Assembly: GCA_965224755.1 (NCBI GenBank)
Contig: OZ245061.1
Coordinates: 2,247,612 to 2,311,611, forward strand
Direction: 5' to 3'
From: Hellea sp.
GTDB taxonomy: Bacteria > Pseudomonadota > Alphaproteobacteria > Caulobacterales > Maricaulaceae
DNA length: 64,000 nucleotides
Below the pieces are notes generated by a model, which saw only the letters and a program-made list of their open reading frames with translations, did not search any database and was not told where the DNA came from. Below, piece after piece: positions 27,467-53,887 of the stretch; position 1 is the stretch's first letter; every line of letters starts with the position of its first letter. The position numbers and the translations under genes are program-made.

Positions 27467-27486
27467 ATACCAATTTGAATTGGTAT
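27467..27486. promoter_or_regulatory. Candidate operator: perfect inverted repeat ATACCAAT-ttga-ATTGGTAT upstream of the symporter
   Basis: 8-bp arms at 27467..27474 and 27479..27486. Further TGGTA-type half sites lie at 27501..27507 (reverse) and 27520..27526. About 50 nt upstream of ATG 27538. Confidence 0.45.
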
Positions 27487-27537
27487 ATATACAAGTCAAA
27501 TTACCATAAACAAAAACAATGGTAGAGGGTTTAGGCA

Positions 27538-29158
27538 ATGGCTGAGAGTTTTACAGGACTCGATTGGGTAGTAATTGGCGGTTATATAGTCTTGCTTTTT
27601 GTTCTTGGCTGGAGAGTCTTGCTTTTTGTTCTTGGCTTTTGCGCGGCGAAAATCTGAAAATGCCAAGGACTATTTTTTAGGCGGCAACACCATGCCGTTT
27701 TGGGTTGTTGCAATATCAATTTTGGCAACGTCGCAATCCGCCGCCACATTTCTGGGCGGGCCCGATCAAGGCTACCGCGGCAACTACACCTATCTGGCAA
27801 CAAATATCGGCACGATTATAGCCGCTATATTTGTTGCTAAAGTTCTGATCCCTAAATTCTATGCTCTCAAAGTTACCACCGTTTATGAATTGCTGGCTAA
27901 CCGGTTTAACGACAATACGATGCGGGCTGCGGGCGGCATGTATCTCGTCGGGCGGGTCTTCGCCAGCGGCTCCCGGCTTTTTCTCGCCGCCATCGCTGTG
28001 GCGATGATTTTATTTTCCAATATAGATGCGGGCAGTATTATTATCTCTGCTTTTTTGATGATGGTCTTAGGCTTTTCTATCACGTTTTTAGGCGGGATTA
28101 AATCTGTGATCTGGAGCGACCTTATCCAGTTTCTCATTTATTGGGGCGCGGCGATCGCGGTTTTATTTATCCTCTGGAAAGCTATTCCGGCAGGCGGCGC
28201 CGAGATTATTGAAGGCCTTAAAAACGCCCCCACGGATGATGGCGACATAGAAAACAAATTGAAATTCTTCGACTTTAGCTTCGACTTTACAAAACCCTTT
28301 GCCATGATCTCTGTTCTGACGGGAATGACTCTCTTGGCGACGGCGAGTTTTGGTATGGATCAGGATATGACCCAGCGTGTGCTGACCTGCAAAAATGAAA
28401 AAGACGGCGCGCGGGCGCTTATCATTGCGGCGGTTATTAGTATCCCGGTGGTCTGGGTGTTTGTCTCTATCGGGCAATTATTGCATGTGTTTTACGAGCG
28501 GCCTGACTTGATGGGAGCGGGCATAACCAGCGCAGCGGAGCGCGAATTTAGCGGCGAGAAAATAACTATTTTCATGCACTATATTTTAGGCGAACTCCCG
28601 GCAGGTATGCGCGGGCTTGTCACTGTGGGCGTCATTGCCGCCGCCGTATCAACCATTAACTCCGGGCTTAATTCGATGTCCTCCGTGATCGTCGAGGATT
28701 TTTACCGACCCTGGAAAAATAGATCAATGAAAAATAGGCGCGCAAAAGCCTCTGAAATGCATTTTGTCCGCGCCGGCCAGGTCTCTATGGGGGTGGTCGG
28801 TATTGCATTATTCTTGATGTCGGTTTTGTGTTTTTACTGGCAACGCTATACGGATATGCCGCTGCTCGATTTCGCGCTCTCGGTGATGGTGTTTTCATAT
28901 TCGGGGCTACTAGGTGTTTATTTCACGGTCTTGTTCACCAAACGGGGCTCGCATGCTTCCGTATTATGGGCCCTAGCCATCGGGTTTTTAGTCACCCTGT
29001 TTATGCAGGCCTTTATCCTTGATAACCTGCCCATACCGGAAAGCTGGAAAGCCGTGAAAAACCTCGCCTTCTCATGGAAATTATGTATCGGCACATTGAT
29101 AGCATTTTTGGTCTGCGTAGCCGGTAATGATAATAATTTAAAAGCGAAGACGGCGTGA
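27538..29158 (+). pseudogene. Sodium:solute symporter (SSF) family transporter, 5' end disrupted by a 28-nt insertion
   Basis: ATG 27538 gives MAESFTGLDWVVIGGYIVLLFVLGW..., which stops at 27655..27657. The rest of the protein (FARRKSENAKDYFLGGNTMPFW...) is in the +1 frame. A 23-nt exact duplicate (27588..27610 and 27615..27637) plus 5 extra nt accounts for the shift. Confidence 0.7.
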
Positions 29159-30765
29159 AAAACTTTCTTACAGGGACAGCATTATTGGGCGCTTTGTTGT
29201 GCGTTTCATGTGCGAGCACGAACGCGCAACAGCTAAAGCCGCAGACCATAGAGCGCGCCCAAAGCTCGGCCCCTCTTAGCGATAGCGAAATCACGCAAAT
29301 CGCTGAGCGGGCCTTGCTAGCCTTTAAAACCCCCGGCATGTCTGTGGGGGTTGTTAAAGACGGCAAGACTATATTCACAGGCGGGTTCGGTATTCGCGAT
29401 ATGGACAGCAAGGCGGGCGTAGACGGAGACACTTTGTTTCGTATTGCCTCCACCAGTAAAGCTTTCACCTCTGCTGCGCTCGCTATATTGGTGGATGAGG
29501 GCAAGCTGGACTGGGATCAAACAGTCATATCCGTTTTGCCCAATTTCCGCATGATGGACGCGTGGGTGACGCGCGAATTTACCGTGCGCGATTTACTGGT
29601 GCACCGCAGCGGACTTGGTATTGGAGCCGGGGATTTGATGCTATGGCCGGAGCCGTCCGGTTTTACCCGCGATGAAATTATCCATAATTTACGCTACCTC
29701 AAATCTACGTCAAGTTTTCGCTCACGCTATGCCTATGATAACCTTCTCTATATTGTAGCCGGTGATGTGGTAACCAAGGCCAGCGGTGTTCCCTATGAGG
29801 AATTTGTCCAAAAACGGATAATGGACACCCTCGATATGGACTGTTTTGGCGGCAGGATTGCCAAACAGGATCTGGACAATGTCGCTATCCCTTACGGATT
29901 TATCGAAGGCAAAATACAGGCCATTCCCCGCAATAAAGTCACAGGAAAAATTACGGCTTCACACCCGGCGGGCGGGCTGGCTTGTAATGCAAAGGGCATG
30001 AGCAACTGGATGTTAGCGCAACTCGGCGGCGGTGTCGGATCCAATGGTCAACGCATTTTTAGTGAAAAACAACGCGATGAAATGTGGACATCACAGACCA
30101 TTTTGCGGGTCTCCAAATCCGAACGAGCCAATGACAACACCCATTTCAAAACTTACGCTCTGGGTTGGCGCAAGGAAGACATGCACGGGCTGGAGGTCAT
30201 TTCCCACACCGGAACGCTGTCGGGATTTCAGGCCTATGTAGTTTTGGTGCCGGAACTGGATTTAGGTATCACTATCCTCAATAACGGCTCCAATTACGGG
30301 GCGCGCACATCGGTCATGCAAAGCATTGTCAAAGCTTATATGGGACAACCCAAAACCGATTGGGTCGGGCATTATAAAGGCCTGCAAGACAAGGCGGCAG
30401 CCGAAGGTAAAAGTCCGGCCACCAACTATGAGAGCGGCGGAACCGGCACGCTTGCCCGTCCACTATCGTCATATGCGGCCAGCTATAAAGACCCATGGTT
30501 TGGCATCGTCGACATAAAAATGAACGGTAACGCCTTGCGCTTCACCGCCCGCAAATCGGTTAACTTAAGCGGAACGCTGGAACCCTTTAACGGCAACATC
30601 TTCATAGTCCGCTGGGACAATAGAGGCTTCAATGCTGACGCCTTCGCTAAGTTTGAAGCAGGCCCCAACGGCAAAATCAACGGCCTAAAAATGACACGCG
30701 TCGACCCCGGAGCCGATTGGAGTTTCGATTTTCAGGACTTGGGGTTTACGCGGGTTGAAGATTAG
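29155..30765 (+). CDS. Exported serine hydrolase of the class-C beta-lactamase / PBP fold
   Basis: 536 aa. GTG start overlaps the symporter stop (GTGA). Cys-containing signal peptide LLCVSCAS. SxxK motif ASTSKAF. Confidence 0.8.
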   Translation: MKNFLTGTALLGALLCVSCASTNAQQLKPQTIERAQSSAPLSDSEITQIAERALLAFKTPGMSVGVVKDGKTIFTGGFGIRDMDSKAGVDGDTLFRIASTSKAFTSAALAILVDEGKLDWDQTVISVLPNFRMMDAWVTREFTVRDLLVHRSGLGIGAGDLMLWPEPSGFTRDEIIHNLRYLKSTSSFRSRYAYDNLLYIVAGDVVTKASGVPYEEFVQKRIMDTLDMDCFGGRIAKQDLDNVAIPYGFIEGKIQAIPRNKVTGKITASHPAGGLACNAKGMSNWMLAQLGGGVGSNGQRIFSEKQRDEMWTSQTILRVSKSERANDNTHFKTYALGWRKEDMHGLEVISHTGTLSGFQAYVVLVPELDLGITILNNGSNYGARTSVMQSIVKAYMGQPKTDWVGHYKGLQDKAAAEGKSPATNYESGGTGTLARPLSSYAASYKDPWFGIVDIKMNGNALRFTARKSVNLSGTLEPFNGNIFIVRWDNRGFNADAFAKFEAGPNGKINGLKMTRVDPGADWSFDFQDLGFTRVED

Positions 30766-30807
30766 TCACCACCGGTTTTGCGCAAGATACGGCCATAAAC
30801 AGGCGCT
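30712..30807. repeat. Repeat R2 copy 1: hydrolase 3' end plus a 45-nt fragment of the D-aminoacylase 3' end
   Basis: 96 nt, roughly 90% identical by eye to 34714..34809. Positions 30762..30806 read on the minus strand as APVYGRILRKTGGD*, a copy of the D-aminoacylase C-terminus. Confidence 0.85.
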
Positions 30808-30914
30808 GTGAATTGACTACACAGCGCTCACGTTTAGGGGGCCTTAGCCCAGCTGGTAGAGCGCTTCGCTGGCAGCGAAGAGGTCAAGAGTTCGACTCCC
30901 TTAAGGCTCCACAC
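30802..30914 (+). repeat. Repeat R1 copy 2: leader plus a degenerate tRNA-Ala
   Basis: Begins at the same ggcgct as copy 1. That hexamer is also the last 6 nt of R2 copy 1, so the junction shows microhomology. Confidence 0.85.
30838..30914 (+). pseudogene. Degenerate tRNA-Ala(GGC) paralogue
   Basis: Same anticodon arm and G3:U70 as the intact copy. Differences: D stem GCCC/GAGC has a C-A mismatch; T stem AAGAG/CCCTT has one compensated and one uncompensated change; there is an extra A before the 3' acceptor strand; the 3' end is ACAC instead of ACCA. Confidence 0.6.
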
Positions 30915-30972
30915 CCCCACTTCATATTCTCCTGCGGATCGGTTCACCTGTCAGCCTCTGAATACGGGTTGG

Positions 30973-32061
30973 CTAGTCTCGAAAAAGTTCACCCACTTTT
31001 TGAGAGAAAACAACAGCGCCTACCGGGTTCATGTGGTCAGGATTATAAAAATTGATCTGTGAGCGCCGTGGTAAGTTTGCGTAAAAAAGGCCTAAGTCTT
31101 CTGGGTTCTCCCAAATATCATAGGCATAACCCTCCTTGAGAAAACGATTCATAAAATAACGCTCATCAAGCCCCCAATCATTTAGCGTAGGCGAAATCAC
31201 GCTTTGCGCGCAGGTGACATTCGCTTCGAGAAATTCGGATAGATCCGCATAGTCAGCACCGGGGTTGTATTTTGCAATCAATTTTGATGTTATTTCCGGG
31301 ACGGGCGCAATAATAATATCCAGTTCCATCCCCCGAAGTTTTAAATCCGTGCAAAAGCGGCGCAAATTATTTTTGTTTTGTGGATTGATTTTTGCCGTAT
31401 TTAAAACGGGGGCCAGATTGCTTTCACTAACCATTGGGAAAGCCTCTAACCGCTGTTTCACCTGTGCTAAAGAGAGTGATGTTATTTTATCGTGGTGAAG
31501 CCGCCGTTGTTTTTGATATAATTCTTTACTGAGCTTGAGTGGCGGCAAGCCTGCCTCTATATTTTCAATCCAAGCATCACTGATTTTTTTTTGCATATTT
31601 GAATCTGATAAAATTGCCCGCGCATAGTCAAGACGTTTGTCATGCTGTCCAAGCTTTAGTGGCACGCCCGCATCTGCCACCCAAATCAAACGCTTTGGCG
31701 ACAGGTTTTCTTTAGCGAGGAACGTCATAAATGGATGTAAGAAATCTGTATTCCATGTTGGGAGAGCGCATATAGCAACACGCTTTTTACCAAGTGTGCT
31801 TTTAAGAACATAGAGATCAATTGCGGCATAGGCATGGGAGCTACCAATAATAACTATATCGATATTTTGGCCGTGTTTTAAGGCAACACAACCCTCTGCA
31901 GCTTTACTGTGCAGCCCCATTAAAAATTCATCTTCTTGCACAATTTGGCTTAATCTTTTGGCATGGGGATCAGGTCTCTGCATTCCGTGAATGAGGTAAT
32001 TCATCGGCCAAATGATCAGTATTATAACCAGAATAAAGAATAACGGTTTAGGGTTTCTCAA
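30973..32061 (-). CDS. Membrane-anchored SGNH/DltD-like partner of the MBOAT acyltransferase
   Basis: 362 aa. N-terminal TM helix LFFILVIILIIWP. Candidate nucleophile IIGSSHAY. C-terminal NPDHMNPVGA (Asp/His pair). 15 nt downstream of the MBOAT gene. Confidence 0.55.
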   Translation of the reverse strand: MRNPKPLFFILVIILIIWPMNYLIHGMQRPDPHAKRLSQIVQEDEFLMGLHSKAAEGCVALKHGQNIDIVIIGSSHAYAAIDLYVLKSTLGKKRVAICALPTWNTDFLHPFMTFLAKENLSPKRLIWVADAGVPLKLGQHDKRLDYARAILSDSNMQKKISDAWIENIEAGLPPLKLSKELYQKQRRLHHDKITSLSLAQVKQRLEAFPMVSESNLAPVLNTAKINPQNKNNLRRFCTDLKLRGMELDIIIAPVPEITSKLIAKYNPGADYADLSEFLEANVTCAQSVISPTLNDWGLDERYFMNRFLKEGYAYDIWENPEDLGLFYANLPRRSQINFYNPDHMNPVGAVVFSQKVGELFRD

Positions 32062-32076
32062 ATCTCTCTCCTTGCT

Positions 32077-33543
32077 TTAAAACTGAAAATAAACAAATGG
32101 CGTACTGAGGCCGGCAAAATAAAATGAGGCCATGAATAAAAGGCAAAAGAAAATCAGCCAGCCATAATTGGCTTGCCACAGAGGCGGCCTGTGACCCAAA
32201 ATATGCCGATCACGATGCGCCGAGCCGCCGGACAATAAAACCTGCGTTGAAATTTCAATTCGCAAACAGATAATCATAAAAACAATAAAAATAATATTGA
32301 CCCAGCCCTGCAAAGATAACCCCACTATGCCTTCAGCTAAGGAAGAGACAGACACCAGCTTTCTTAAAATTACCTTGGCCACATAAAAATCAGGCGCTGT
32401 GAAAATAACTCCCATAATCATAAAGAAAGACAGGCTCAGCAAGACTGTAAAAAAAGTTCTGCCGGCCGGGCTAAAAATTGAAAATAGGCGAGTTGTCACA
32501 AACATCGACATCCATACAAGGATACCCCAAAAGAAAAATTGAATATTATTGCCGTGCCACAAGCTAGAAATTGTGATTGCAAAAAACATGGATATTCCAG
32601 CGCCCATCGGCCATTTATCCGTCAGGCGCCTGAGCGGCGCATATATATGATCCCTGACAAAATGATGAAATGTAATATGCCAGCGCGTCCAAAACTGCCT
32701 GAGTGAATTAGCCCGGAAAGGTGCGTTAAAATTAGCAGGCAGACGCAAGCCGATGAGCAGACCAATCCCGACCGCCATCTCGCTATAACCGCAAAAATCA
32801 AAATACACACGCGGCGGTGCGATAAGGGCAAGCTGCCAAGCCTCGACTATGGTTAAATCACCAAAAGCCGCTTTTGACATGAGCGGCGTGGCAATACGCC
32901 CAAGGCTGTCAGCGAGCACCACTTTTTTAAACAGCCCTAAGGAAAACCAGCCTATACCCTGACACGCCATATTCAGACGGGCCTCCAAAGTAATCCCGCT
33001 TAGAATGCGGGCAAATTCTCGTGTCATCCGTTTGTGCGTGACGATGGGCCCTGCCAAAAGCTGAGGAAAAAACATAATGAACCCGGCATAACTGATCAGT
33101 GATGTCACTGACGCGCGCCCGCGCCTTAAGTCCAGTAAATATCCGATTTGCTGAAAAATATAAAAGGAAATTCCGAGCGGTATAAGCAGGCCGGGCTGCT
33201 TGGCTTGTATCCAGCCATAGCTATTCCACAAATCAATGATAGAGGCTCCATATTTCCAAATGGCCAATGCCGAAAGATTAAGACCGATAGCAATCCATAA
33301 AAACAAAGGCGAATGTGTTTTTGATTTAAACCGCTCGTACAAATAGGCCATGCACCAGCTCATGACAATTAGGGCTAGCAACAGCAGCAAATGAGGGATC
33401 GAACCAAGGCCGTAAAAGATTATGGAGGTTATTAAGATCGCCGGGAGAAACAACTGTTTTTGCTTAAAAGCAGAAGCGGCAACAAGCAGAGCCAGTGCAA
33501 GCGGCAAAAAATAAAATAAAAAATCATATGTCGCAAATGACAT
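32077..33543 (-). CDS. MBOAT family O-acyltransferase (AlgI/DltB/PatA-like)
   Basis: 488 aa, polytopic. Conserved His region FWTRWHITFHHFVRDHIYAPL. Confidence 0.8.
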   Translation of the reverse strand: MSFATYDFLFYFLPLALALLVAASAFKQKQLFLPAILITSIIFYGLGSIPHLLLLLALIVMSWCMAYLYERFKSKTHSPLFLWIAIGLNLSALAIWKYGASIIDLWNSYGWIQAKQPGLLIPLGISFYIFQQIGYLLDLRRGRASVTSLISYAGFIMFFPQLLAGPIVTHKRMTREFARILSGITLEARLNMACQGIGWFSLGLFKKVVLADSLGRIATPLMSKAAFGDLTIVEAWQLALIAPPRVYFDFCGYSEMAVGIGLLIGLRLPANFNAPFRANSLRQFWTRWHITFHHFVRDHIYAPLRRLTDKWPMGAGISMFFAITISSLWHGNNIQFFFWGILVWMSMFVTTRLFSIFSPAGRTFFTVLLSLSFFMIMGVIFTAPDFYVAKVILRKLVSVSSLAEGIVGLSLQGWVNIIFIVFMIICLRIEISTQVLLSGGSAHRDRHILGHRPPLWQANYGWLIFFCLLFMASFYFAGLSTPFVYFQF

Positions 33544-33608
33544 AAATTTATACGATGCTAGGGGAAATCATTGTTGGATCACTTATTCGCTCTAAACCTT
33601 TAAGTATA

Positions 33609-33629
33609 TTGTCTATAAACTATAGACAA
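33609..33629. promoter_or_regulatory. Candidate operator: perfect 9-bp inverted repeat TTGTCTATA-aac-TATAGACAA
   Basis: Lies in the 134-nt divergent region between the MBOAT gene and the TauD-like gene. The GT...AC half-site architecture is typical of GntR-family operators. Confidence 0.4.
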
Positions 33630-33677
33630 GCCTAAAAAGAGGGGCTAATTTCTGGGGACTATAAAGCTGGGGCCGAA

Positions 33678-34697
33678 ATGGATATCACACACCTCAATAA
33701 TGCCGTGCAGGTTACGGGATGCGATCTTGAGAAAGATGAGGACTGCATAGAGCTTGGTCATATTTTGGCCGATGAATGTGTCTTGCTTGTCAAGGATAGC
33801 GTGTCTGAAAAACGGCTATATGATATTCATTCGCTTTGGGGGCAGCCAAGCTTCGCGATCATTCACCGCTATGTGAGCGAGCGGCGACTCACTGGGCGGC
33901 ATTGGCGCAACCTACTTTTAAATCTTGGCTATGCGTCAACAGCGGTTGATCATTTCGCCAATAAATCAGGGATGTCCCGGGTGAGTTTTGAAAAAAACAA
34001 ACGGGGTAAGCCCACAGGTAATTTTACCAATGGCGAGCTGGATTGGCACAGCGATCAACAAGCCTATCATGATAATCACCGCGTCGTTAGCCTGATGAGT
34101 CTCTGGGGCACAAAAAACAGCCAAACTTCATTTCTTTGCACAGCAAAGCCTTATGCAAAATTAAATCATGAAGACAAGTCTATGGTTGATGAACTTGTCA
34201 CGGTTTGGAATTGGGACGGCGGAAAAATGGCACCCGATCTTATACCCTCCCAAAGAGAAATTGTTCATTATAATATTATCCCTTATTCTGATATGGAGTG
34301 CGCGCTTGTTGATCAAACGGCGACAGGGATCAAAGGCATTCGCTTCCCAAGCCATTGCTTTAGCCATTTCAAAGGCATGTCCACCGCCGAAAGCCAGCGC
34401 TATAAAGATCATCTGTGGGAAATTTTACACCGGCCTGAATATGTTTACACCCATGACTGGGAAGACGGCGAGATAATGTTTATGGATCAAAACATCACCC
34501 TGCACGCTCGCCCTACCAATGTTCAGGATGGAAACAAAAGAACTTTGTGCCGCATGATTTCTTATCTTGATAAACTTTATCCCGGCAACGGCCCCGCAGA
34601 CCATGTCTTGTATGACGGCCAAAAACTGGACCATGAAACCTTTGCTAAAATGGTGGATGAACAGCGCAGATCTGAATATTACGCCAAAGCGTCATAA
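33678..34697 (+). CDS. TauD/TfdA family Fe(II)/2-oxoglutarate dioxygenase
   Basis: 339 aa. HxD iron motif in GELDWHSDQQ and a distal His in NITLHARP. Confidence 0.75.
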   Translation: MDITHLNNAVQVTGCDLEKDEDCIELGHILADECVLLVKDSVSEKRLYDIHSLWGQPSFAIIHRYVSERRLTGRHWRNLLLNLGYASTAVDHFANKSGMSRVSFEKNKRGKPTGNFTNGELDWHSDQQAYHDNHRVVSLMSLWGTKNSQTSFLCTAKPYAKLNHEDKSMVDELVTVWNWDGGKMAPDLIPSQREIVHYNIIPYSDMECALVDQTATGIKGIRFPSHCFSHFKGMSTAESQRYKDHLWEILHRPEYVYTHDWEDGEIMFMDQNITLHARPTNVQDGNKRTLCRMISYLDKLYPGNGPADHVLYDGQKLDHETFAKMVDEQRRSEYYAKAS

Positions 34698-34713
34698 ACG
34701 TCTAATATTCCGG

Positions 34714-34809
34714 GCCGATTGGAGTTTTGATTTTCAGGATTTGGGGTTTACGCGTCTTGAAGATTAGTCACCATCGGTTTTGCGCAAGATGCGTCCGTAA
34801 ACAGGCGCT
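34714..34809. repeat. Repeat R2 copy 2: relic of the hydrolase 3' end plus the genuine D-aminoacylase 3' end
   Basis: Encodes ADWSFDFQDLGFTRLED* on the plus strand; the intact hydrolase ends ADWSFDFQDLGFTRVED*. There is no upstream hydrolase body here. Confidence 0.85.
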
Positions 34810-42599: not shown

Positions 42600-42640
42600 A
42601 ACAGCCAAATAAACGCTAAAACAGCCTTATAAGTTTAAAA

Positions 42641-45837: not shown

Positions 45838-47412
45838 TTAATCTACCAGCACGCCCAAAGCCGTTTTTAGCCCGTCAAGCTTATCGCCATATTTTTTCCA
45901 GCGCCCGATGGATTCGGAATGTAGCGGTTGGCGCACTTGCACGGCGCTGGCGGTGTCTACCGGGGCGGTGTTTTCATGAAAGCGCAGACAGGCCGCGTCC
46001 CATTCCAACCCGCAAAATGACAGCAATTTGCGGGTTTGGTTTTCTTGGTCAGATATTATGTCTTCATAGGCCACTTCCATGAACCGGCTAGAAGGTAAAG
46101 TGCTTCGCCAATGCGCCATTAAGCCATCAAACCCGCGGTAGAAAGCGGCCGTGTCTTCAATGTCGAGGTTATAGCCGTGATTATGATTGTGGAAGGCGAA
46201 AAGCTGCCGGTAATTGGACAAGCAACTATCCATAGCCCCGCGCCGAAGCGCGATGATTTTGGCATTGGGCAGGGCGCGGTGTATCAAACCCGCATAGAAA
46301 AAGTTAAATGGTAACTTATCAATCAGCTGCGCCGCCCCCTGCGCTAGGCCCTTGGTTTTAGCGATGTAAGTCTCGCCCACATGTGACAGATCAATCTTGC
46401 CAGCCGCCAGAAAATCCTCAGCCTGAAATTCCATATTTAAAGGCATTCCCGTTGCGCGTTTTATCAGCTCTGGGAAAACATTCAGTTCGCCCGCAGACCG
46501 CACTTGGGGATGTGATGATAAAATTCGGTCAATAAGTGTGGTTCCGGTGCGCGGCAAGCCGACCACGAATATGGGGGCGGCATTCGAAGCTGGGCCAAGA
46601 GCCGAGCGGTTTGGTCTCATATCTATGTTTACGCATGTTTTCGCGGCTTCAAAAACCTTCGCCACCTCTTGGCGGCTATATCGAATATGCTCTCTTTTGA
46701 GCGTCTTCGCCTTTTTAAGCCAATCAAAGCTCTCCTCATATCGCCCCAAATCTTCAAGCGTTTTGGCGGCGGCATGCCCCAGCAGTAATTGCGCATCCGC
46801 ATCGCCTACCGCGCCTTCAAAAAGCGATGTCAGTTTTTCAAGCTTATTATTGTCTGGGCTTTGTTTTTCGAGGGCTATCAATGAAAACCAAGCGAGGTAG
46901 AATTTTGGATCAATCGACAAGGTCTTTTTATAGGCCGTTTTCGCCGTCTTAAAATCACCGATAAACTCAGCCGAGGCGCCGAGGTTAAATTGGAATTTAG
47001 CCCATCGGGGATTGCGTTTTGTCGCTTGCTCAAAAAAGGGAATGGCTAATTCATGATACCCCGCACGGCTATAAACCACGCCAATCATATCGGCCAATAA
47101 AGCCTCATTCGTTCCTATAGCGGCCGCCTTATCCGCATGTATTTTGGCTTGTTCATTATGGCCGAATCCACCCAGCGCTTTGGCATAATAGGTTTGGTAA
47201 TGCACATTTTTTGGCCCATGTTCCGAAGCTTTTGCGAAAAACTCCAAGGCTTTGTCATGGCTGCCGGTATCCGAGGCCAATACGCCCAAGAGAAAAAAGG
47301 CAAGCGGGTTTTTTTCATCCCGCCTCAAGGCCTCGATGGATTGCGCGTAAACGGCCTCATAGTTCTTTGACCTAAGAAGGGCCATGCCCGATGTGAATGT
47401 TAACGGGGTCAT
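45838..47412 (-). CDS. TPR-repeat protein fused to a PAPS-type sulfotransferase domain
   Basis: 524 aa. N-terminal TPR-like repeats. 5'-PSB-like loop VVGLPRTGTTLIDRILSSH. The start lies 8 nt after the stop of the kinase gene. Confidence 0.75.
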   Translation of the reverse strand: MTPLTFTSGMALLRSKNYEAVYAQSIEALRRDEKNPLAFFLLGVLASDTGSHDKALEFFAKASEHGPKNVHYQTYYAKALGGFGHNEQAKIHADKAAAIGTNEALLADMIGVVYSRAGYHELAIPFFEQATKRNPRWAKFQFNLGASAEFIGDFKTAKTAYKKTLSIDPKFYLAWFSLIALEKQSPDNNKLEKLTSLFEGAVGDADAQLLLGHAAAKTLEDLGRYEESFDWLKKAKTLKREHIRYSRQEVAKVFEAAKTCVNIDMRPNRSALGPASNAAPIFVVGLPRTGTTLIDRILSSHPQVRSAGELNVFPELIKRATGMPLNMEFQAEDFLAAGKIDLSHVGETYIAKTKGLAQGAAQLIDKLPFNFFYAGLIHRALPNAKIIALRRGAMDSCLSNYRQLFAFHNHNHGYNLDIEDTAAFYRGFDGLMAHWRSTLPSSRFMEVAYEDIISDQENQTRKLLSFCGLEWDAACLRFHENTAPVDTASAVQVRQPLHSESIGRWKKYGDKLDGLKTALGVLVD

Positions 47413-47420: not shown

Positions 47421-48284
47421 TTAGCCGGGCTTAGCTTGGCGGGCGAGCAGAAGCGCACCATCAAGCGCGTCGCCTTCGGGCTTAACAATTTCCGCGCGGA
47501 TATCCGGGGCAAGCCAAGGTTCAATACTGGCCGCTAAACCGCCCAATAAAGCGCAGCGCGGCACGCCGGCATTAAAAAGGCTACGCACCATGGAATCTAT
47601 ATGATTGGCCGAATGCCGCGTAATCAAGCGCCCATGCCTGTCGCCGCTCTCGGCGGCTTCCAAGACTATAGGCGCTAATGCGGCATAGTCGGCGGCTGTG
47701 GCCTTATCCATCCAGCGGACAATTTCATGGGTTTGATTATTATATTTTTTAAATAAATGCTGTGTCAGCTCGGAATGACTTATGCGTCCATCCGATGTCC
47801 GCAATGTGATGCGGATCGCTTGCAAGCCGATATAAGCGCCGCTCCCTTCATCAGAGACAGGGAATCCATATCCGCCGGCGCGGACATCCTTGCCCTTTAC
47901 GCGGCCAATGGCGATACTGCCGGTGCCGACAATAACAATGCCTCCATCCTGTCCTGAATGCGCGCCCATATTAGCAATAAAAGCATCATTGTGAATACAG
48001 GTCGAGCGGAACGGAAACGCTTGGGCTTGCAAGTCTTCCTTTGCCCCTTCGCGGCTAATACCGGCAACACCCATACCCGCGTGAACACTAGCAACATCCT
48101 TAGCGCTAAGTTTCGCTTCTGCGGTCGCTTGCTGGTACGCCTCTTGAATAGCGGCAAAGACATTTAAAATTCCAATGCTCGCATTTGCTGGCCCCGATAA
48201 GCCCTGACCAATAATGTGCCCAGCCGCATTGGTTAATCGTGCGCGACAACTCGTACCGCCGGCATCAATGCCTAAATAGTACAT
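47421..48284 (-). CDS. nagK: BadF/BadG/BcrA/BcrD-type ATPase: N-acetylglucosamine (or MurNAc) kinase
   Basis: 287 aa. MYYLGIDAGGTSCRARL phosphate-1 motif. Sits in the nag cluster. Confidence 0.7.
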   Translation of the reverse strand: MYYLGIDAGGTSCRARLTNAAGHIIGQGLSGPANASIGILNVFAAIQEAYQQATAEAKLSAKDVASVHAGMGVAGISREGAKEDLQAQAFPFRSTCIHNDAFIANMGAHSGQDGGIVIVGTGSIAIGRVKGKDVRAGGYGFPVSDEGSGAYIGLQAIRITLRTSDGRISHSELTQHLFKKYNNQTHEIVRWMDKATAADYAALAPIVLEAAESGDRHGRLITRHSANHIDSMVRSLFNAGVPRCALLGGLAASIEPWLAPDIRAEIVKPEGDALDGALLLARQAKPG

Positions 48285-48352
48285 AAAACAGCCTTTAAAA
48301 AGAATACTATAACGCTGTCCTATTGGGTTTCAAGCCGCTAAGATATACGAAG

Positions 48353-49393
48353 ATGAAACACGACAAAAAACAACAGAGTTTTATGTATCAGGAAGCGCAA
48401 ACGACACCTGAACTGGTTGCCAAGCAGCTGACCGCTAATAAAATTCTCGTTGAAACACTGAGCAAATATTTACGCCAAAACCCCCCTTCGCTTATCATGA
48501 CGTGCGCGCGCGGTAGCTCAGATCACGCAGCCACATATGCACAATACTTAATTGAAACCCATATGGGTATACCAACGATGTCCTCAGCCCCGTCTATTCA
48601 TTCCGTTTTTGCTGCGCGAAAAAAAATGGAGCGGGTATTATTTCTGGCAATCTCGCAATCGGGCCAAAGCCCTGATATTTTAAGCGCAACACAGGCGGCC
48701 AAAGATGGCGGAGCGTTTGTTGTATCTCTTGTAAACAATACCACATCCGCTTTAGCGGACATATCTGATATAGTCATACCTCTACATTCAGGCTTGGAAA
48801 AAAGTGTTGCGGCCACAAAATCATTTATTTGTAGTCTCAGTGTAATCGCGCATTTGGTTGCTGCGTGGCAGAAAAACCATAAATTGATGGCTGAACTTAA
48901 CGCATTGCCACATGAACTTAATACTGCTTTTGACCAAGATTGGCCCCAAGGTTTAGATAGATTAAAATCCGCCAATAATCTCTTTGTTGTGAGTAGAGGT
49001 TTGGGCCTTGGCGCCGTCCAAGAGGCAGCGCTAAAACTCAAAGAAACTTGCGGACTACACGCGGAAGCCTTTAGCGCAGCAGAAGTTAAACATGGCCCAA
49101 TGACTATCGTGCAAAATGGTTTTCCGGTAATAGTGTTTTCTCTTCAAGATCAGACACAGCGCAGTATTGACGACATCACTTTAGCGTTCATCACGCGAAA
49201 AGCACAAATCCTCTCGGTTGGAAAAGCTTATGACAAAGCCGTTAATTTGAACATGACGTATTGCGGCCCTGCCGCATTGCGCCCTATTGTTTTTATCCAG
49301 TCATTTTATAAATTTGCAAATGCCCTTTCTATTCTGCGGGGGTATAACCCTGATAAGCCACGTTATTTAAACAAAATTACGGAAACTCTATGA
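48353..49393 (+). CDS. SIS-domain glucosamine-6-phosphate deaminase/isomerase (NagB-II, GlmS C-domain-like)
   Basis: The ORF is open from TTG 48323. ATG 48353 gives MKHDKKQQSFMYQEAQTTPE. CARGSSDHAA and AISQSGQSPD are SIS motifs. Overlaps nagA by 4 nt. Confidence 0.78.
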   Translation: MKHDKKQQSFMYQEAQTTPELVAKQLTANKILVETLSKYLRQNPPSLIMTCARGSSDHAATYAQYLIETHMGIPTMSSAPSIHSVFAARKKMERVLFLAISQSGQSPDILSATQAAKDGGAFVVSLVNNTTSALADISDIVIPLHSGLEKSVAATKSFICSLSVIAHLVAAWQKNHKLMAELNALPHELNTAFDQDWPQGLDRLKSANNLFVVSRGLGLGAVQEAALKLKETCGLHAEAFSAAEVKHGPMTIVQNGFPVIVFSLQDQTQRSIDDITLAFITRKAQILSVGKAYDKAVNLNMTYCGPAALRPIVFIQSFYKFANALSILRGYNPDKPRYLNKITETL

Positions 49394-50535
49394 GCATGAA
49401 GGCTCTCATAAATGCGCGTATCCTGACACCGGAGGGTTTTAAGGACAAACAATCCGTACTGTATGAAGGCGGTATAATTACACACATATGCAATGACAAA
49501 GATCGACCGGTAGACGCCGTGGTCGAGCGTGACCTTGACGGGTTGGTGTTATTGCCCGGATTTATTGACATACAGGTCAATGGCGGCGGCGGCGTTTTGT
49601 TTAACCAGCACCCAAGCGTTGAAGGAATCAGAGCCATTGGCGCGGCCCACCGCAAGTTTGGAACGACTGGATTTTTTCCCACCTTAATCAGTGATGATTT
49701 GGATGTCATGGCGCGCGCTATCAAGGCCGTTAATGTGGCAATTACGCAAGGTGTTCAAGGCGTTCTTGGTATTCATCTTGAAGGGCCATTTCTTAACACG
49801 GAAAAACAAGGTGTGCATGACGCCTCAAAATTCAAGACAATTGGCGAGGATGAATTGGCGCTAATGTCGAGTCTTAAAAACGGCAAAACGATCGTGACAC
49901 TCGCCCCTGAAAAAACCACACCAAACACAATCAAAAACCTGAATAAACTTGGGGTAATTATCTGCGCCGGCCATACGCAAGCGTCTTATGAAGACACGCT
50001 TTTGGCATTGGATGCGGGGCTGACAGGGTTCACCCATTTGTTCAACGCAATGAAGCCTTTGCAAAGTCGTGACCCCGGGGTAATTGCGGCCGCTTTAGTG
50101 GATTCGCGCAGTTGGTGCAGCATCATTGCGGATGGTCACCATGTACATCCGGCCATGTTAAAATTAGCCATACGCGCCAAAAGAGATAATCAGGTTTTCC
50201 TTGTCACAGATGCGATGCCAAGCGTTGGCGCCTCTCACAAACCTTTCTCTCTAGGCAACATGAAAATAAAGGTTACAGGCGGGAAATGTATCACAGAGAA
50301 TGGCACACTTGCCGGATCAGATCTGGACATGATTGGTGCGGTTCGAAATGCAGTTGCTATGCTGGATATAGACATTGCGCAAGCCGTGCGTATGGCGAGC
50401 ATTTTGCCGGCGCGGTTTATAAATATGCATGACCAAATTGGCGAGATACGCGTTGGGCATCAAGCCAATTTTGTTCTTGTTTCTCAAAAGCTAGAAGTGT
50501 TGGAAAGCTGGATAAAAGGAAAAGCTGCGCTTTAA
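49390..50535 (+). CDS. nagA: N-acetylglucosamine-6-phosphate deacetylase
   Basis: 381 aa. PGFIDIQVNGGGG, ICAGHTQA, HLFNAM. Confidence 0.9.
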   Translation: MSMKALINARILTPEGFKDKQSVLYEGGIITHICNDKDRPVDAVVERDLDGLVLLPGFIDIQVNGGGGVLFNQHPSVEGIRAIGAAHRKFGTTGFFPTLISDDLDVMARAIKAVNVAITQGVQGVLGIHLEGPFLNTEKQGVHDASKFKTIGEDELALMSSLKNGKTIVTLAPEKTTPNTIKNLNKLGVIICAGHTQASYEDTLLALDAGLTGFTHLFNAMKPLQSRDPGVIAAALVDSRSWCSIIADGHHVHPAMLKLAIRAKRDNQVFLVTDAMPSVGASHKPFSLGNMKIKVTGGKCITENGTLAGSDLDMIGAVRNAVAMLDIDIAQAVRMASILPARFINMHDQIGEIRVGHQANFVLVSQKLEVLESWIKGKAAL

Positions 50536-50542: not shown

Positions 50543-51286
50543 TTATTCTAAGTGGTCGTTTTCCAAATTCATAACTATGTCATAGCAATCACCACGGTAG
50601 GCTGACCGGGTCAGTTCAACAGGCGTTCCATCTTGGAGCATCGACCTGCGCTCAATACGCAATATCTGGCTATTTTCTTGAATGGACAAAAGGCCGGCTT
50701 CCGTTGGGTTGGCTAATGAGGCGCGGACTTTTTGTGTTCCTTTGGACGGCTTATTTCCTTGTGTTTCAAGTGCCTGATAAAGGGATTCTGTTATTTCAGA
50801 GAGGTCAGGCAACATGGACGCCGGCACGACAGCATGTTCGATTGCCAATGGTTGCCCATCGGACAAACGAACCCGTCCAAGCCGGACGACTTTATCAGAT
50901 TGGCGGATATTTAAAATTTCGGCTTCTTCTGCAGTTGGCGTGCCATAAGCTTTCATAATCCAGATTGCCTGCGGGTTGTGGCCGTGGGTCTGCATATTAC
51001 TGGTAAAGCCGCGCAGGCCAGATCCAAGATGTGCAAACGGGGGAAGAACAAATGTACCGGCTCCATGTTTGCGTTCAACGACCTTTTCTTCAGCAAGAAT
51101 ATTTAAAGCCTTTCGAATTGTCACGCGTGACGCTCCGGTCATAAGGCATAGCTCACGCTCGGACGGCAAGGCATCACCCACATCCACATTGTTTTCAGAA
51201 AGATAGGTGCGTATATTCTTCGCAATTTGCATATAATGAGGCATCGTTGAACTCTTGTCTCGATTAATTTTGTTCAACTTCATCAT
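50543..51286 (-). CDS. nagQ: GntR/HutC-subfamily regulator (HTH plus UTRA), NagQ-like by context
   Basis: 247 aa. LPSERELCLMTGASRVTIRKAL winged helix. UTRA-like C-terminal domain. Embedded in the nag/mur genes. Confidence 0.6.
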   Translation of the reverse strand: MMKLNKINRDKSSTMPHYMQIAKNIRTYLSENNVDVGDALPSERELCLMTGASRVTIRKALNILAEEKVVERKHGAGTFVLPPFAHLGSGLRGFTSNMQTHGHNPQAIWIMKAYGTPTAEEAEILNIRQSDKVVRLGRVRLSDGQPLAIEHAVVPASMLPDLSEITESLYQALETQGNKPSKGTQKVRASLANPTEAGLLSIQENSQILRIERRSMLQDGTPVELTRSAYRGDCYDIVMNLENDHLE

Positions 51287-51559
51287 GGCTTACCTGTCCA
51301 TTAATATGCGGTTATATGTTAGCTTTACCCAAACACCTATTTGGCAATCCTTTTCCATATTTTATATATGAAAATGACAATAGATGTAAAAATAAAACAC
51401 TTAGCTAATACGTGCTTTTACCTCACGAATTGCCTTAAATACGCGTTAATCAACAACAATGCCTGCATTTAGTATTTTGCCGGGATCAAGAGTGTTTTTT
51501 CAAGGCCAATACCATAGAATGACCCTGATATTTAATACGGGGCATAACAATGTGCTGTC

Positions 51560-52450
51560 TTAACCAGGCTTTGTCATGATTAAAGCGAGAGCATGACGTA
51601 GATTTCCTTTTGCTCGATTTAAAGCCCTCTCTGCACTATTTGCATCTTGTCCTGACGCCATTAAGACAGCGGTCTTAATGTTTTTATTGGCTTGGTTGAG
51701 CGAATTGATGGCAGTTTCCTTTGTACAATTCGTGATTTTGCAAATCATATTTATGGCACGGCCTTCAAGCTTATTATTGGAAACCATCATATCGACCATA
51801 AACCCATTATAGACGTGCCCGAGCCGAGTCATAATTGTGGTTGATAGCATATTCAAGACGGCCTTTTGGGCTGTGCCAGCTTTCATTCTTGTTGATCCGG
51901 CAATCAGCTCATTGCCCGTATCGGCAAGAATGGCATGGTCAACATTTTTTAGGATGGGGGCATTGGGGGTGTTCGTAATACCAATCGTCATAGCCCCCAT
52001 TGCATTGGCCTGTTGTAGTGCGCCCAGCGTGAAAGGTGTTTTGCCACTGGCGGCAACACCAATAACAACATCGTTTTTATCGGCTTTCGCAGTGCGTATT
52101 TGAGTTTTACCATCCTCTGAAATATCTTCAGCCCCTTCAGCGCTCACAGTCAGGGCCTGTAAACCGCCAGCAATGCAAAATACAATACGGTCCTGTGTCC
52201 ACCCAAATGTAGGCCCTAATTCTGCACCATCTTGTATAGCAAGGCGTCCCGAAGTGCCCGCGCCCACATAAATTAACCTGCCGGCATGACCCAATCTCCG
52301 GGCGGCCTGATCCGCAGCATTAGCAATATCTTGAATGGCTGGCTTGATAGCGGCCATCGCCACAAGCTGACCTTCATACATGGCCTCAATGGCATCGTGA
52401 GATGACCATTGGTCAAAATCAACGAACCTCTGAGACACACCTTCAGTCAT
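51560..52450 (-). CDS. murQ: N-acetylmuramic acid 6-phosphate etherase
   Basis: 296 aa. SIS motif LIYVGAGTSGRLA and a C-terminal region typical of MurQ. Confidence 0.88.
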   Translation of the reverse strand: MTEGVSQRFVDFDQWSSHDAIEAMYEGQLVAMAAIKPAIQDIANAADQAARRLGHAGRLIYVGAGTSGRLAIQDGAELGPTFGWTQDRIVFCIAGGLQALTVSAEGAEDISEDGKTQIRTAKADKNDVVIGVAASGKTPFTLGALQQANAMGAMTIGITNTPNAPILKNVDHAILADTGNELIAGSTRMKAGTAQKAVLNMLSTTIMTRLGHVYNGFMVDMMVSNNKLEGRAINMICKITNCTKETAINSLNQANKNIKTAVLMASGQDANSAERALNRAKGNLRHALALIMTKPG

Positions 52451-52633
52451 TTGAATTTCCGCAAAGCTTTTGATAGGTTGTTTTCAAAACGCCACTCTGA
52501 CCACACCTATTTACATATTAATTTATGTGTACTCCTGTATTTAATATAAAACCACCTAAAAATGGTAATAAAAAAGATACCAATTAAGTACCTCATAGTG
52601 TTTAAACCGCATATAACTCGCGCGCCACATTTA

Positions 52634-53887
52634 TCAATCATATATAAGATAGCGCTCCCTTACCTGCCCAAACGCCTTTAAGTCGTCACGCCAGCTAGCC
52701 CTGATTTCGTCTTGGCTCTGACCTTGTTTAATTTGCCCCATCAACAAATCATTGCCCGCCAACTTATTAAAAAAATTATTTTTGAGAAAGAAATTTTCCT
52801 GATCGGGCAAAACTTCATAAAAGTTCATCAGCCAAGTTAGGGATATTTGTTTTGTTGGCCGTGATGTATTAGACATAACATCGCGCAGATCGAGCCCATT
52901 GCACGATTGGCCATTCAGTTTTGGTGTTTTCGCGCCCACATTGGCTAATGGTGTAAACTGAAAATCTCCTTGCAAATAATTTGGATGACCTATGGCTTGA
53001 AACGGAAACTCTGTTCCTCGCCCCACGCTTACAACAGTACCCTCAAATAAGGCCAATGAAGGATAGAGATAAATCGAGGTCATATTAGGAAGGTTGGGCG
53101 ATGGCTTTATGGGTAGATTATATCTCGTTTCGTGTGCGTACCCTTTAATTTTCACAACACTAAGATCGCATTTGACGCCATTTTTAAGCCATCCTTCACC
53201 ATTAATCATCTGCCCGTATTCACCAATCGTCATGCCGTAAACCAAAGGTACTGGATGCAGGCCAATGAAAGATTCATAGCCGGATTTTAGTACAGGGCCA
53301 TCAATATAAAACCCATTGGGGTTAGGCCGATCTAGTAAGATCATTGGAACAGAATTTTCTGCACAGGCCTCCATGACATAATGCAGTGTGGAGAGATAAG
53401 TATAGAACCTAACGCCGACATCCTGAATATCAAAAACCAGTACATCTATATTTTGCAGGCTTTGTGGAGACGGTTTTTTATTCTTACCGTAAAGAGAAAT
53501 GATGGCTAGCCCGGTTTGCGCATCGACTTCATCGTTTACAATCTCTCCAGCATCTTTTTGGCCTCGAAACCCATGCTCCGGGGCAAACACTTTGATAACG
53601 TCCACATTTCTGTCGAGTAAGACGTCAATCAAATGTTGTCCGCCAATCATGGATGTCGCATTGGCAACAACCGCGACCTTTTTATCCTTTAAACGCGGAA
53701 GGTAAGCGTCATACTGGGATGCGCCCACTTGTGGTATGGTCTTGCCAACTATTATCGTATTTACGTCAGGTGCTTGCGCAACAATTACATCTTGAACATT
53801 TAGGCTACAGGCACTCACGCAAATACAGATTAAGCATAGAATCGATTTTTTTAATACTTTCAACATGATGGATATCATCGCTGCCAA
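52634..53887 (-). CDS. namZ: DUF1343 family protein (NamZ-like exo-beta-N-acetylmuramidase candidate), lipoprotein
   Basis: 417 aa from TTG 53887; alternative ATG starts lie at 53878 and 53866. Lipobox CVSACS. VAVVANATS ... FAPEHGFRG ... VLVFDIQDVGVRFYTY is the typical family core. Confidence 0.65.
   Translation of the reverse strand: MAAMISIMLKVLKKSILCLICICVSACSLNVQDVIVAQAPDVNTIIVGKTIPQVGASQYDAYLPRLKDKKVAVVANATSMIGGQHLIDVLLDRNVDVIKVFAPEHGFRGQKDAGEIVNDEVDAQTGLAIISLYGKNKKPSPQSLQNIDVLVFDIQDVGVRFYTYLSTLHYVMEACAENSVPMILLDRPNPNGFYIDGPVLKSGYESFIGLHPVPLVYGMTIGEYGQMINGEGWLKNGVKCDLSVVKIKGYAHETRYNLPIKPSPNLPNMTSIYLYPSLALFEGTVVSVGRGTEFPFQAIGHPNYLQGDFQFTPLANVGAKTPKLNGQSCNGLDLRDVMSNTSRPTKQISLTWLMNFYEVLPDQENFFLKNNFFNKLAGNDLLMGQIKQGQSQDEIRASWRDDLKAFGQVRERYLIYD

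Follow-up and report, generated by a model that had tools for sequence, protein, structure and literature searches.

The window analysed here, a 64-kb stretch of a Hellea sp. genome (contig OZ245061.1, positions 2,247,612–2,311,611), carries at 27.5–53.9 kb a block of genes that probably constitutes a co-regulated, conserved peptidoglycan (PG) utilisation regulon in this marine relative of the alphaproteobacterium Robiginitomaculum. Genes were called from the open reading frame (ORF) map together with Pfam and NCBIfam scans of the window, covering 50 ORFs, and the closest solved structures were taken from sequence matches to the PDB; all gene calls made for this block by an earlier sequence-only reading of the same DNA were reproduced in this way. 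The block stands out by its G+C content (43%–52%, against 53%–59% in the flanks) and lies between housekeeping genes on the left, where a tRNA-Ala(GGC) gene (27243–27318, plus strand) precedes it, and the histidine-utilisation (hut) operon on the right.

At the left end of the block, an SSF symporter gene (27538–29158, plus strand; Pfam SSF, 2e-27) is followed by a gene for an exported serine hydrolase with a beta-lactamase fold and a DUF3471 domain (29155–30765, plus strand; Pfam), whose start overlaps the SSF stop codon. A six-gene peptide operon occupies the minus strand from 42445 down to 34764 and encodes, in this order, an Amidase_2 plus PG_binding_1 lipoprotein (41513–42445; Pfam), an M19 dipeptidase lipoprotein (40227–41501; Pfam, 2e-94), the diaminopimelate decarboxylase LysA (38925–40205; TIGR01048), a DUF819 membrane transporter (37743–38906; Pfam, 1.7e-95), an SH3b plus NlpC/P60 lipoprotein (36311–37735; PF12913 and PF00877) and a PRK09061-type amidohydrolase lipoprotein (34764–36314; Pfam and NCBIfam PRK09061), with intergenic spacings that range from a 4-nt overlap to 21 nt. 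Divergent from the amidase gene is that of a predicted Oar-type TonB-dependent receptor with a CarboxypepD_reg N-terminus (42735–45770, plus strand); alignment of orthologous upstream regions makes ATG 42735 a more likely start than GTG 42675. Further to the right follow genes for a cytoplasmic TPR-sulfotransferase (45838–47412, minus strand; Pfam), located 8 nt downstream of the gene for a BadF/ASKHA sugar kinase of the NagK-II/MurK type (47421–48284, minus strand; Pfam), then NagB-II and NagA (48323–50535, plus strand, with the NagB-II stop overlapping the NagA start and ATG 48383 as the probable NagB-II start; NCBIfam), a NagQ-type GntR/UTRA regulator (50543–51286, minus strand; Pfam), the N-acetylmuramic acid (MurNAc)-6-phosphate etherase MurQ (51560–52450, minus strand; NF003915) and a lipoprotein of the NamZ (GH171) exo-beta-N-acetylmuramidase type (52634–53887, minus strand). 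Signal peptides, read directly from the N-termini, are present on six hydrolases, five of which have a lipobox (amidohydrolase LVGC, NlpC/P60 GASC, M19 LSAC, amidase VSAC and NamZ VSAC); the sixth is the DUF3471 hydrolase, and the receptor too starts with a signal peptide. Besides two tRNAs, an Rfam scan of the locus detected no RNA element, riboswitches included, and a scan for intrinsic terminators that might bound the operons did not rise above shuffled controls.

The enzymes predicted to act on the glycan part of PG belong to characterised families. The NamZ protein, an exported lipoprotein with NamZ_N (PF07075, 3.9e-79) and NamZ_C (PF20732, 3.3e-31) domains, has Bacteroides fragilis BF0379 as its closest structure (PDB 4JJA, 2.9e-116) and is a predicted GH171 exo-beta-N-acetylmuramidase; NamZ has been reported in Bacteroidetes, Firmicutes, Actinobacteria, Spirochaetes and gammaproteobacteria, a list that does not name alphaproteobacteria (PMC8054146). 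MurQ scores 349 bits with NF003915 (cut-off 168) and 286 bits with TIGR00274, just under the cut-off of 302; the kinase scores 246 bits with NagK_SO3507, below the cut-off, and matches 1ZC6 and the MurNAc/N-acetylglucosamine (GlcNAc) kinase 8ZO3 in the PDB; NagB-II is NagB_SO3506-like and NagA scores above the TIGR00221 cut-off. The DUF3471 hydrolase, paired with SSF in all family loci, matches best Pab87 (2QMI) and the R61 DD-peptidase, and the possibility that it is a resistance enzyme was rejected on scores 10-fold below the class C cut-offs.

On the peptide side, the amidase combines in its sequence the features of AmiD and AmpDh2/3, namely Amidase_2 and PG_binding_1 domains and a lipoprotein signal, and its PDB matches (Pseudomonas aeruginosa AmpDh3, 3e-58; AmpDh2; Escherichia coli AmiD, 6e-51) are all periplasmic enzymes. 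The NlpC/P60 protein has DvLysin (3M1U) as its best match, and the YGWG, RDC(T), PRNS and GH(V) motifs align and are conserved. In the alignment, a Tyr of the window protein occupies the position of DvLysin Ala211, as in nearly all alphaproteobacterial, gammaproteobacterial and clostridial orthologs linked to DUF819, the residue varying in the divergent proteins of Sulfurovum and Campylobacterota. With the A211Y exchange, DvLysin retains its activity on the free tetrapeptide and loses nearly all of it on PG and MurNAc-peptides (Xu et al., PMC4600125). The NlpC/P60 lipoprotein is thus predicted to be a 'recycling'-type gamma-D-Glu-meso-diaminopimelate (mDAP) endopeptidase acting on free stem peptides; the gate Tyr predicts a requirement for a free N-terminal L-Ala, so that the enzyme would act after the amidase. 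Bacterial homologs of renal dipeptidase, one of them from Caulobacter, are the PDB matches of the M19 protein (3B40, 2RAG and 3ID7); M19-type enzymes are said, from the 2010 work of Cummings and co-workers, to prefer L-Xaa-D-Xaa dipeptides. The amidohydrolase matches best an N-acyl-D-glutamate deacylase (3GIP, 8e-58) and then D-aminoacylases, and LysA scores 469.6 bits with TIGR01048 (cut-off 297.9). The receptor has a CarboxypepD_reg domain (1.4e-10), a signal peptide and a C-terminal Phe, and aligns in BLASTP at both its N-terminus (3e-22) and its C-terminus (4e-07) with a receptor of Kordiimonas for which Pfam does give Plug and barrel matches.

Conservation of the gene set in related genomes

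Eighty-five loci around DUF819 homologs were fetched (L001–L085, each L-number being the label of an individual locus), and all window proteins were run against them by tblastn. The closest named relatives of the DUF819 protein are found in Robiginitomaculum, Hellea, Fretibacter and Algimonas, and the gene set of the block is found again in Robiginitomaculum, Algimonas, Fretibacter and Litorimonas, with reshuffled versions in Kordiimonas, Paraglaciecola, Alkalimonas and one Desulfobulbaceae metagenome-assembled genome (MAG). Twelve related alphaproteobacterial loci retain the receptor next to an operon for the amidase, M19, in some cases LysA, DUF819, NlpC/P60, in some cases an epimerase, and the amidohydrolase; in the same 12 loci this operon is convergent with the DUF3471 hydrolase–SSF pair and lies beside the kinase, NagB-II–NagA, regulator and MurQ genes. 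All eight complete family loci include the TPR-sulfotransferase, which occupies one of two positions and has a C-terminal domain distantly resembling tyrosylprotein sulfotransferases. It is a conserved member of the locus and no accidental resident. A TauD gene (33678–34697) had gone unmentioned in the sequence-only reading.

Two Robiginitomaculum MAGs (L008 and L009) have two NamZ genes each, one within the peptide operon and one directly after it, and also carry an MR_MLE dipeptide epimerase. The Kordiimonas arrangement comprises the receptor, a DUF819–NlpC/P60–epimerase unit, the hydrolase with an NhaC-like transporter, LysA and an RpiR regulator; neither an RpiR regulator nor an NhaC-like transporter is found in the window. 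Paraglaciecola has an LD-carboxypeptidase (LdcA), MFS, NagA and NagB-II genes beside DUF819, NlpC/P60, SSF, kinase, MurQ and NamZ genes and a receptor, and SSF shares one operon there with BadF, MurQ and NamZ. The Desulfobulbaceae MAG combines the amidase, an Oar-type receptor, DUF819, epimerase and NlpC/P60 with an LD-carboxypeptidase and an alanine racemase, and the Alkalimonas locus (L079, 6214–9791) adds a GH3 and beta-lactamase-fold pair, which is the NagZ/AmiE pairing of Bacillus. LysA is present, differently arranged, in related loci of Robiginitomaculum MAGs, Kordiimonas and Alkalimonas. A NagX-like acyltransferase is among the extra genes of related loci, and in the Robiginitomaculum MAG L015 (16880–18274) an FAD-linked oxidase of the D-lactate-dehydrogenase type lies between the MurQ and regulator genes, D-lactate being the by-product of MurQ. 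In Kordiimonas, Neptunicella, Alkalimonas and an uncultured gammaproteobacterium (L003, L018–L020, L031, L079 and L082), an RpiR (MurR-like) regulator replaces the GntR regulator, a case of non-orthologous replacement.

Several lineages have thus repeatedly joined the sugar and peptide halves of murein catabolism, in differing gene orders, and this repeated joining is our strongest evidence in support of the PG reading. The comparative search that the sequence-only reading had proposed therefore came out in its favour: the sugar arm and the peptide arm stay together in relatives despite the reshuffling of genes. No chitinase or GH20 gene was seen in any of the related loci.

The protein on which the comparison was centred, DUF819, is about 60% identical across phyla, for example between the alphaproteobacterium of the window and Clostridia. 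It belongs to the CPA/AT transporter clan, as does the glutamate:Na+ symporter family with GltS (PMC8396727); the literature searched holds no functional description of DUF819 and the databases searched no annotation. Among 80 DUF819 loci obtained from a scan of a genome collection, an MR_MLE epimerase of the L-Ala-D/L-Glu type is encoded in 51, in 41 of the 80 at a distance of at most 2 kb, and an SH3b-NlpC/P60 gene is directly adjacent to DUF819 in 26; the unit of Acetoanaerobium sticklandii consists of DUF819, DUF3870 and the epimerase only. A module of DUF819 with a YkfC-type endopeptidase and an epimerase or D-Glu-specific hydrolase is seen in Alphaproteobacteria, Gammaproteobacteria, Desulfobacterota, Campylobacterota and Clostridia. 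Given this proximity to epimerase genes across phyla, the simplest reading is that DUF819 likely imports the dipeptide used by the cytoplasmic epimerase. For the import by DUF819 assumed from the sequence alone, a dipeptide such as L-Ala-D-Glu is a likelier cargo than peptides in general. The window has no epimerase and instead encodes the exported D-Glu-deacylase-type enzyme and M19, and in this species the cargo could be L-Ala-D-Glu, D-Glu or mDAP. Tentatively, and somewhat short of what we would call probable, DUF819 may be the missing inner-membrane importer for L-Ala-gamma-D-Glu or a close stem-peptide fragment, defining together with a YkfC-type endopeptidase and an epimerase or D-Glu-specific hydrolase a widespread salvage module, which in the Robiginitomaculum/Algimonas/Fretibacter group would have been fused with an Oar-type receptor, NamZ–MurQ and LysA under NagQ into a counterpart of a polysaccharide utilisation locus (PUL) for eating the cell walls of other bacteria.

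The NagQ-type regulator and its predicted operators

The regulator has a GntR winged helix (PF00392, 5.8e-18) and a UTRA domain (PF07702, 3.5e-33), belongs to the HutC subfamily, and its gene adjoins those of NagA and NagB-II in the window and in nine related loci. NagQ is a HutC-subfamily regulator with a motif of direct TGGTATT repeats (PMC4494728), described as tandem, and has been placed in alpha-, beta- and some gammaproteobacteria (PMC5343134). The direct TGGTATT repeats of the locus, with their 11-bp period, are those of the published motif and are kept in eight genomes, which bears out the earlier suggestion of a NagQ-like regulator: most likely, a NagQ-type GntR/HutC repressor controls the block via tandem TGGTATT boxes. 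The alternative that it is the HutC of the neighbouring hut operon was rejected, that operon having its own HutC gene at 60705–61406. The hut genes form a complete cluster (hutU, hutG, hutH, hutI and hutF with their own HutC-type regulator; 54052–61406), and the window contains two HutC-subfamily regulators, that of the locus and that of the hut operon.

Within the window, boxes with at most one mismatch form four clusters, upstream of SSF (three), between the amidase and receptor genes (nine), upstream of MurQ (three) and upstream of the regulator gene (one). Those of the SSF–hydrolase operon are AATACCA (27466–27472), TGGTATA (27481–27487) and ATTACCA (27500–27506), and TCAAATTGGTATTGCAAT upstream of SSF is kept in L006, L008 and L068. 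The divergent region between amidase and receptor (42567–42676, plus strand) contains the tandem boxes TGGTGTTaaatTGGTATT (42567–42584), AGGTATT (42593–42599) and a proximal TGGTATT (42641–42647) that overlaps the -35 element of a promoter-like site, TTGACT-18-TATTGT (42647–42676). In an eight-genome alignment of the region upstream of the receptor, with a mean identity of 45%, the 11 columns TGGTATTTGAC are invariant and overlap the -35-like hexamer; the distal tandem is also conserved, and many boxes in relatives are 11-bp-period tandems, for example TGGTATTatatTGGTATT. The position of the proximal box over the -35 of the receptor promoter fits repression that would be relieved by an amino-sugar phosphate. 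Two exact boxes of the amidase–receptor region, in the window (42578–42647) and in L006, L014, L011, L008 and L001, are 63, 63, 63, 74, 85 or 31 nt apart. These distances lie close to whole helical turns, which suggests cooperative binding on one face of the DNA. Upstream of MurQ, one-mismatch boxes start at 52548 (minus), 52563 (plus) and 52576 (minus) in the region 52548–52582. An exact TGGTATT at 51508–51514 (minus strand), just upstream of a promoter-like site of the regulator gene, suggests autoregulation. This last box was missing from the regions proposed from the sequence alone, of which those upstream of SSF, at 42567–42647 and upstream of MurQ contain sites with at most one mismatch, and that at 53954–53969 contains none.

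Across the related loci, the receptor gene is preceded by an exact box in 8 of 8 cases, the amidase operon in 7 of 9, the kinase gene in 5 of 6, NagB-II in 6 of 8, SSF in 7 of 12, MurQ in 4 of 7 and the NhaC-like gene in 4 of 5. In L013 and L015, the two genomes in which M19 and DUF819 head operons, these genes have boxes in front of them as well. Exact boxes are absent upstream of MBOAT, TauD and hutU, and upstream of the TPR-sulfotransferase gene in the four loci where it is transcribed alone (0/4). The window contains 23 copies of TGGTAWT, where 12.7 ± 3.7 are expected, and none of 100 shuffles came to 23; the count of the bare 7-mer (9, against 7.2 expected) is not significant, and the single strict period-11 tandem in 64 kb, at 42567, against 0.39 expected, is suggestive only. 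In 13 family loci, TGGTATT was counted 44 times in 25 kb of intergenic DNA and 37 times in 235 kb of coding DNA (12 of the 13 loci), and a k-mer comparison of these loci identified it as the most frequent of the strongly enriched intergenic 7-mers. AT-rich 7-mers in general are, however, enriched 4- to 8-fold between genes, so that the enrichment figure by itself is modest; for this reason positional conservation weighs more, and it is on the positional conservation across genomes, which is decisive, that chance clustering of the boxes was rejected.

Candidate pathway and comparison with known systems

On the strength of sequence, synteny and conserved operators, the following route can be proposed. 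The Oar-type TonB-dependent receptor would bring PG fragments across the outer membrane, and in the periplasm the AmiD/AmpDh-type lipoprotein amidase would strip the stem peptides off MurNAc, leaving a denuded glycan from which NamZ would take MurNAc at the non-reducing end; the beta-lactamase-fold/DUF3471 hydrolase may trim D-Ala or cross-links or serve as a second amidase. The gamma-D-Glu-mDAP bond of the free stem peptides would be cut by the SH3b-NlpC/P60 lipoprotein, and M19 and the N-acyl-D-Glu-deacylase-like amidohydrolase would split L-Xaa-D-Xaa dipeptides (mDAP-D-Ala and L-Ala-D-Glu). Import across the inner membrane would fall to DUF819 for the peptide product, which is most likely L-Ala-D-Glu or a closely similar compound, and to the SSF symporter, a putative importer of MurNAc and/or GlcNAc. 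In the cytoplasm, the BadF-type kinase, MurQ, NagA and NagB-II would turn the amino sugars into fructose-6-phosphate, and LysA would turn meso-DAP into L-lysine.

One of the closest known systems is the NagQ regulon for GlcNAc use in Proteobacteria, reportedly described by Yang and co-workers in 2006 and, in Xanthomonas campestris, by Boulanger and co-workers in 2010 and 2014. The two share a HutC-subfamily GntR regulator, a direct-repeat TGGTATT operator and a core of nagA, nagB-II and a BadF-type nagK. By contrast, the amidase, NlpC/P60, M19, the D-aminoacylase-type enzyme, DUF819, LysA and NamZ are absent from the catalogued NagQ regulon and present here, the best-conserved operator of the locus serves the receptor and the six-gene stem-peptide operon, and the locus has no chitin genes, phosphotransferase system (PTS) or NagP. 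In the RegPrecise reconstruction, murQ (in 8 genomes) and a TonB-dependent receptor (in 4) already figure as members of the NagQ regulon (Leyn et al., 2016, PMC5343134 supplement), and the NagQ/NagR-controlled receptor NixC of Xanthomonas has been proposed to take up PG fragments (PMC4173781). The novelty claimed in the sequence-only reading was, therefore, overstated: the enzyme families, the NagQ operator and the membership of murQ and the receptor in the NagQ regulon are known, and a TonB route has been proposed for NixC. The literature searched describes neither this locus nor a complete periplasmic stem-peptide operon with LysA, DUF819 and NamZ in the NagQ regulon, nor the wide spread of the module of DUF819, YkfC-type endopeptidase and epimerase.

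Three further systems share parts of the proposed chemistry. In Bacillus subtilis, the murQ-murR-murP-amiE-nagZ-namZ operon provides a secreted amidase, NamZ and MurQ for MurNAc catabolism (PMC8054146), and the YkfC-type gamma-D-Glu-diamino-acid endopeptidase, a point of likeness to ykfABCD, acts on free stem peptides (PMC4600125); amidase, NamZ, MurQ and a beta-lactamase-fold hydrolase recur in the locus. The locus differs, however, in being laid out for a Gram-negative cell, with a predicted TonB-dependent receptor and enzymes that are lipoproteins, in having an SSF symporter and a kinase where Bacillus has the MurP PTS, in the replacement of MurR by NagQ and of the ABC oligopeptide system by DUF819, in the lack of NagZ, YkfA and YkfB homologs in the window, and in the addition of LysA, M19 and the D-Glu-deacylase-type enzyme. 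With the MurT–MurK–MurQ and NamZ1/NamZ2 system of Tannerella forsythia it shares a putative non-PTS MurNAc transporter, an ASKHA MurNAc/GlcNAc kinase, MurQ, an exported NamZ and, on the reading proposed here, exogenous PG as the substrate; Tannerella, however, is auxotrophic and salvages MurNAc for biosynthesis, whereas NagA, NagB-II, LysA and the peptide hydrolases of the locus point to catabolism, and the regulator is different and the receptor of the Oar rather than the SusC/SusD type. No SusD-family match was found in the locus with Pfam, and the analogy with Bacteroidota PULs is functional only. The chemical logic of murein recycling in E. coli and Pseudomonas (AmpG, AmpD/AmiD, NagZ, LdcA, MpaA, YcjG, AnmK and MurQ) is the same, with an amidase, a gamma-D-Glu-DAP peptidase, handling of L-Ala-D-Glu and MurQ–NagA–NagB, but their genes are scattered and their enzymes, mostly cytoplasmic, act on anhydro-muropeptides imported by AmpG, whereas degradation by the locus would be periplasmic, with genes that are clustered, linked to a receptor and not accompanied by AmpG, AnmK or NagZ.

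PG forms a large reservoir of carbon and nitrogen in organic form in the sea, to which D-amino acids and diaminopimelate contribute, and to our knowledge the genes by which free-living bacteria consume external PG are poorly defined beyond a few models. The locus offers a compact, regulated candidate pathway of which every step is testable. It would widen the NagQ regulon, known for amino sugars, so as to take in the peptide half of murein, would link TonB-dependent uptake to cell-wall fragments and would give DUF819, a membrane protein family of high conservation, a function that can be checked. If the proposal is true, the gene set could mark murein consumption in metagenomes.

Competing explanations and the inserted cassette

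Several observations weigh against PG utilisation as reconstructed here. The receptor has no Plug or barrel match in Pfam even at E ≤ 1. Neither a GH3 nor a GH20 N-acetylglucosaminidase, which would be the NagZ partner of NamZ, is among the 50 scanned ORFs of the window, nor does the window encode AnmK, AmpG, a dipeptide epimerase, an LD-carboxypeptidase or a D-Glu- or D-Ala-catabolising enzyme; because of these gaps the pathway is incomplete unless it is completed elsewhere. No box lies upstream of NamZ in either of two loci (0/2), the window NamZ gene having no site with at most one mismatch. The region between the kinase and NagB-II has one weak box (TAGTATT) in this genome, against one to three exact boxes in relatives. 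If both dipeptidases are periplasmic, a cargo for DUF819 is hard to name in this species; the amidohydrolase also resembles, more distantly, the sugar-acid deacetylase OngB; LysA could simply be a housekeeping gene; and a frameshift in the SSF gene, described below, may disable sugar import in this strain.

The competing explanation that survives best, an unlikely one in our judgement, holds that the genes mainly recycle products of the cell's own periplasmic PG turnover, the receptor having another substrate, such as chito-oligosaccharides, or a minor role. It draws on the importance of PG recycling for the physiology of Caulobacter (PMC13046382), on the closest solved relatives AmiD and AmpDh2/3, which act on the cell's own murein, and on the location of the amidase, endopeptidase and dipeptidases in the periplasm, where products of endogenous turnover would reach them with no need for an uptake step. 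The route is, however, a catabolic one (MurQ, NagA, NagB-II and LysA): genes for re-use, of the MurU, AmgK or Mpl type, are missing from the locus, as are AmpG and AnmK for anhydro-muropeptides, the usual turnover products, and a TonB-dependent receptor adjoins the module in alpha-, gamma- and deltaproteobacteria, under the best-conserved box.

We give very little credence to an ordinary NagQ regulon for GlcNAc and chitin, next to which the peptide-hydrolase operon would act on D-amino-acid peptides of non-murein origin. Conserved tandem boxes lie in the promoter of the amidase operon, and boxes follow DUF819 and M19 when the gene order changes (L013 and L015); the operon opens with a PG-binding MurNAc-L-Ala amidase and includes the meso-DAP-specific LysA, two NamZ genes lie in or beside it in L008 and L009, and the related loci are devoid of chitinase and GH20 genes. 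These features outweigh the points that published NagQ regulons centre on nagA, nagB-II, nagK and transporters, often with chitin genes, and that M19 and D-aminoacylase-type enzymes are, from what Cummings and co-workers are said to have found in 2009 and 2010, broad in specificity. Equally improbable is a decay of the locus in this strain that would have left the pathway partly non-functional though working in relatives, as the SSF insertion, the repeat-flanked cassette and the single one-mismatch box between kinase and NagB-II might suggest, given that all other ORFs are intact and full-length, the cassette lies between two convergent operons without disrupting a gene and is a stable arrangement by its recurrence in a second contig, and the SSF frameshift could be an assembly error.

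The lesion in the SSF gene is a 22-nt insertion at about 27612–27633, an imperfect copy of the preceding 23 nt (27588–27610), which puts the ORF starting at ATG 27538 out of frame after about codon 25. In the alignment, the insertion is absent from four orthologs, all starting with MAESF at an ATG that matches 27538; the long ORF restarts at TTG 27599. The insertion is either a real lesion, making SSF a pseudogene, or an assembly error, and the symporter assigned to sugar import from the sequence alone may be inactive in this strain.

The cassette is a 3.9-kb insertion (30808–34713) flanked by 96-nt direct repeats (30712–30807 and 34714–34809; 92% identical) in which the stretch where the hydrolase and amidohydrolase genes meet with their 3' ends is present twice. 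On the left, the cassette opens with a copy, 116 nt long and 91% identical, of the tRNA-Ala region 27207–27322, including a degenerate second tRNA-Ala(GGC) copy (30838–30912, plus strand), which scores 42 bits with Rfam, against 68 for the first; the cassette further encodes a 362-aa orphan membrane protein, hyp362 (30973–32061, minus strand), an MBOAT acyltransferase (32077–33543, minus strand) and a TauD-family dioxygenase (33678–34697, plus strand). These three genes were undetected in all 85 related loci, and the insertion is species-specific in that the two operons abut directly in relatives. A metagenome contig with a 98% identical hyp362 homolog also carries the cassette, and the MBOAT and hyp362 pair is found alone in an unrelated context, beside an integrase. 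Membership of MBOAT, hyp362 and TauD in the pathway, for instance in O-acetylation of PG, was rejected on their absence from related loci, the lack of intergenic boxes and the unrelated context of the pair. Hyp362 has no Pfam or NCBIfam match, and only nine homologs were found among 5.8 billion proteins; it is probably a partner of the O-acyltransferase. Its gene lies directly downstream of MBOAT in both contexts examined (L088, 7001–8095; L089, 3598–4686).

Elsewhere in the window, a G+C dip to 0.43 at 12001–13000 includes an ORF for 181 aa (12288–12833) that has no Pfam match, and a 673-aa ORF at 19005–21026 (plus strand), likewise with no match in Pfam, is surrounded by a strongly positive AT skew (+0.20 to +0.31).

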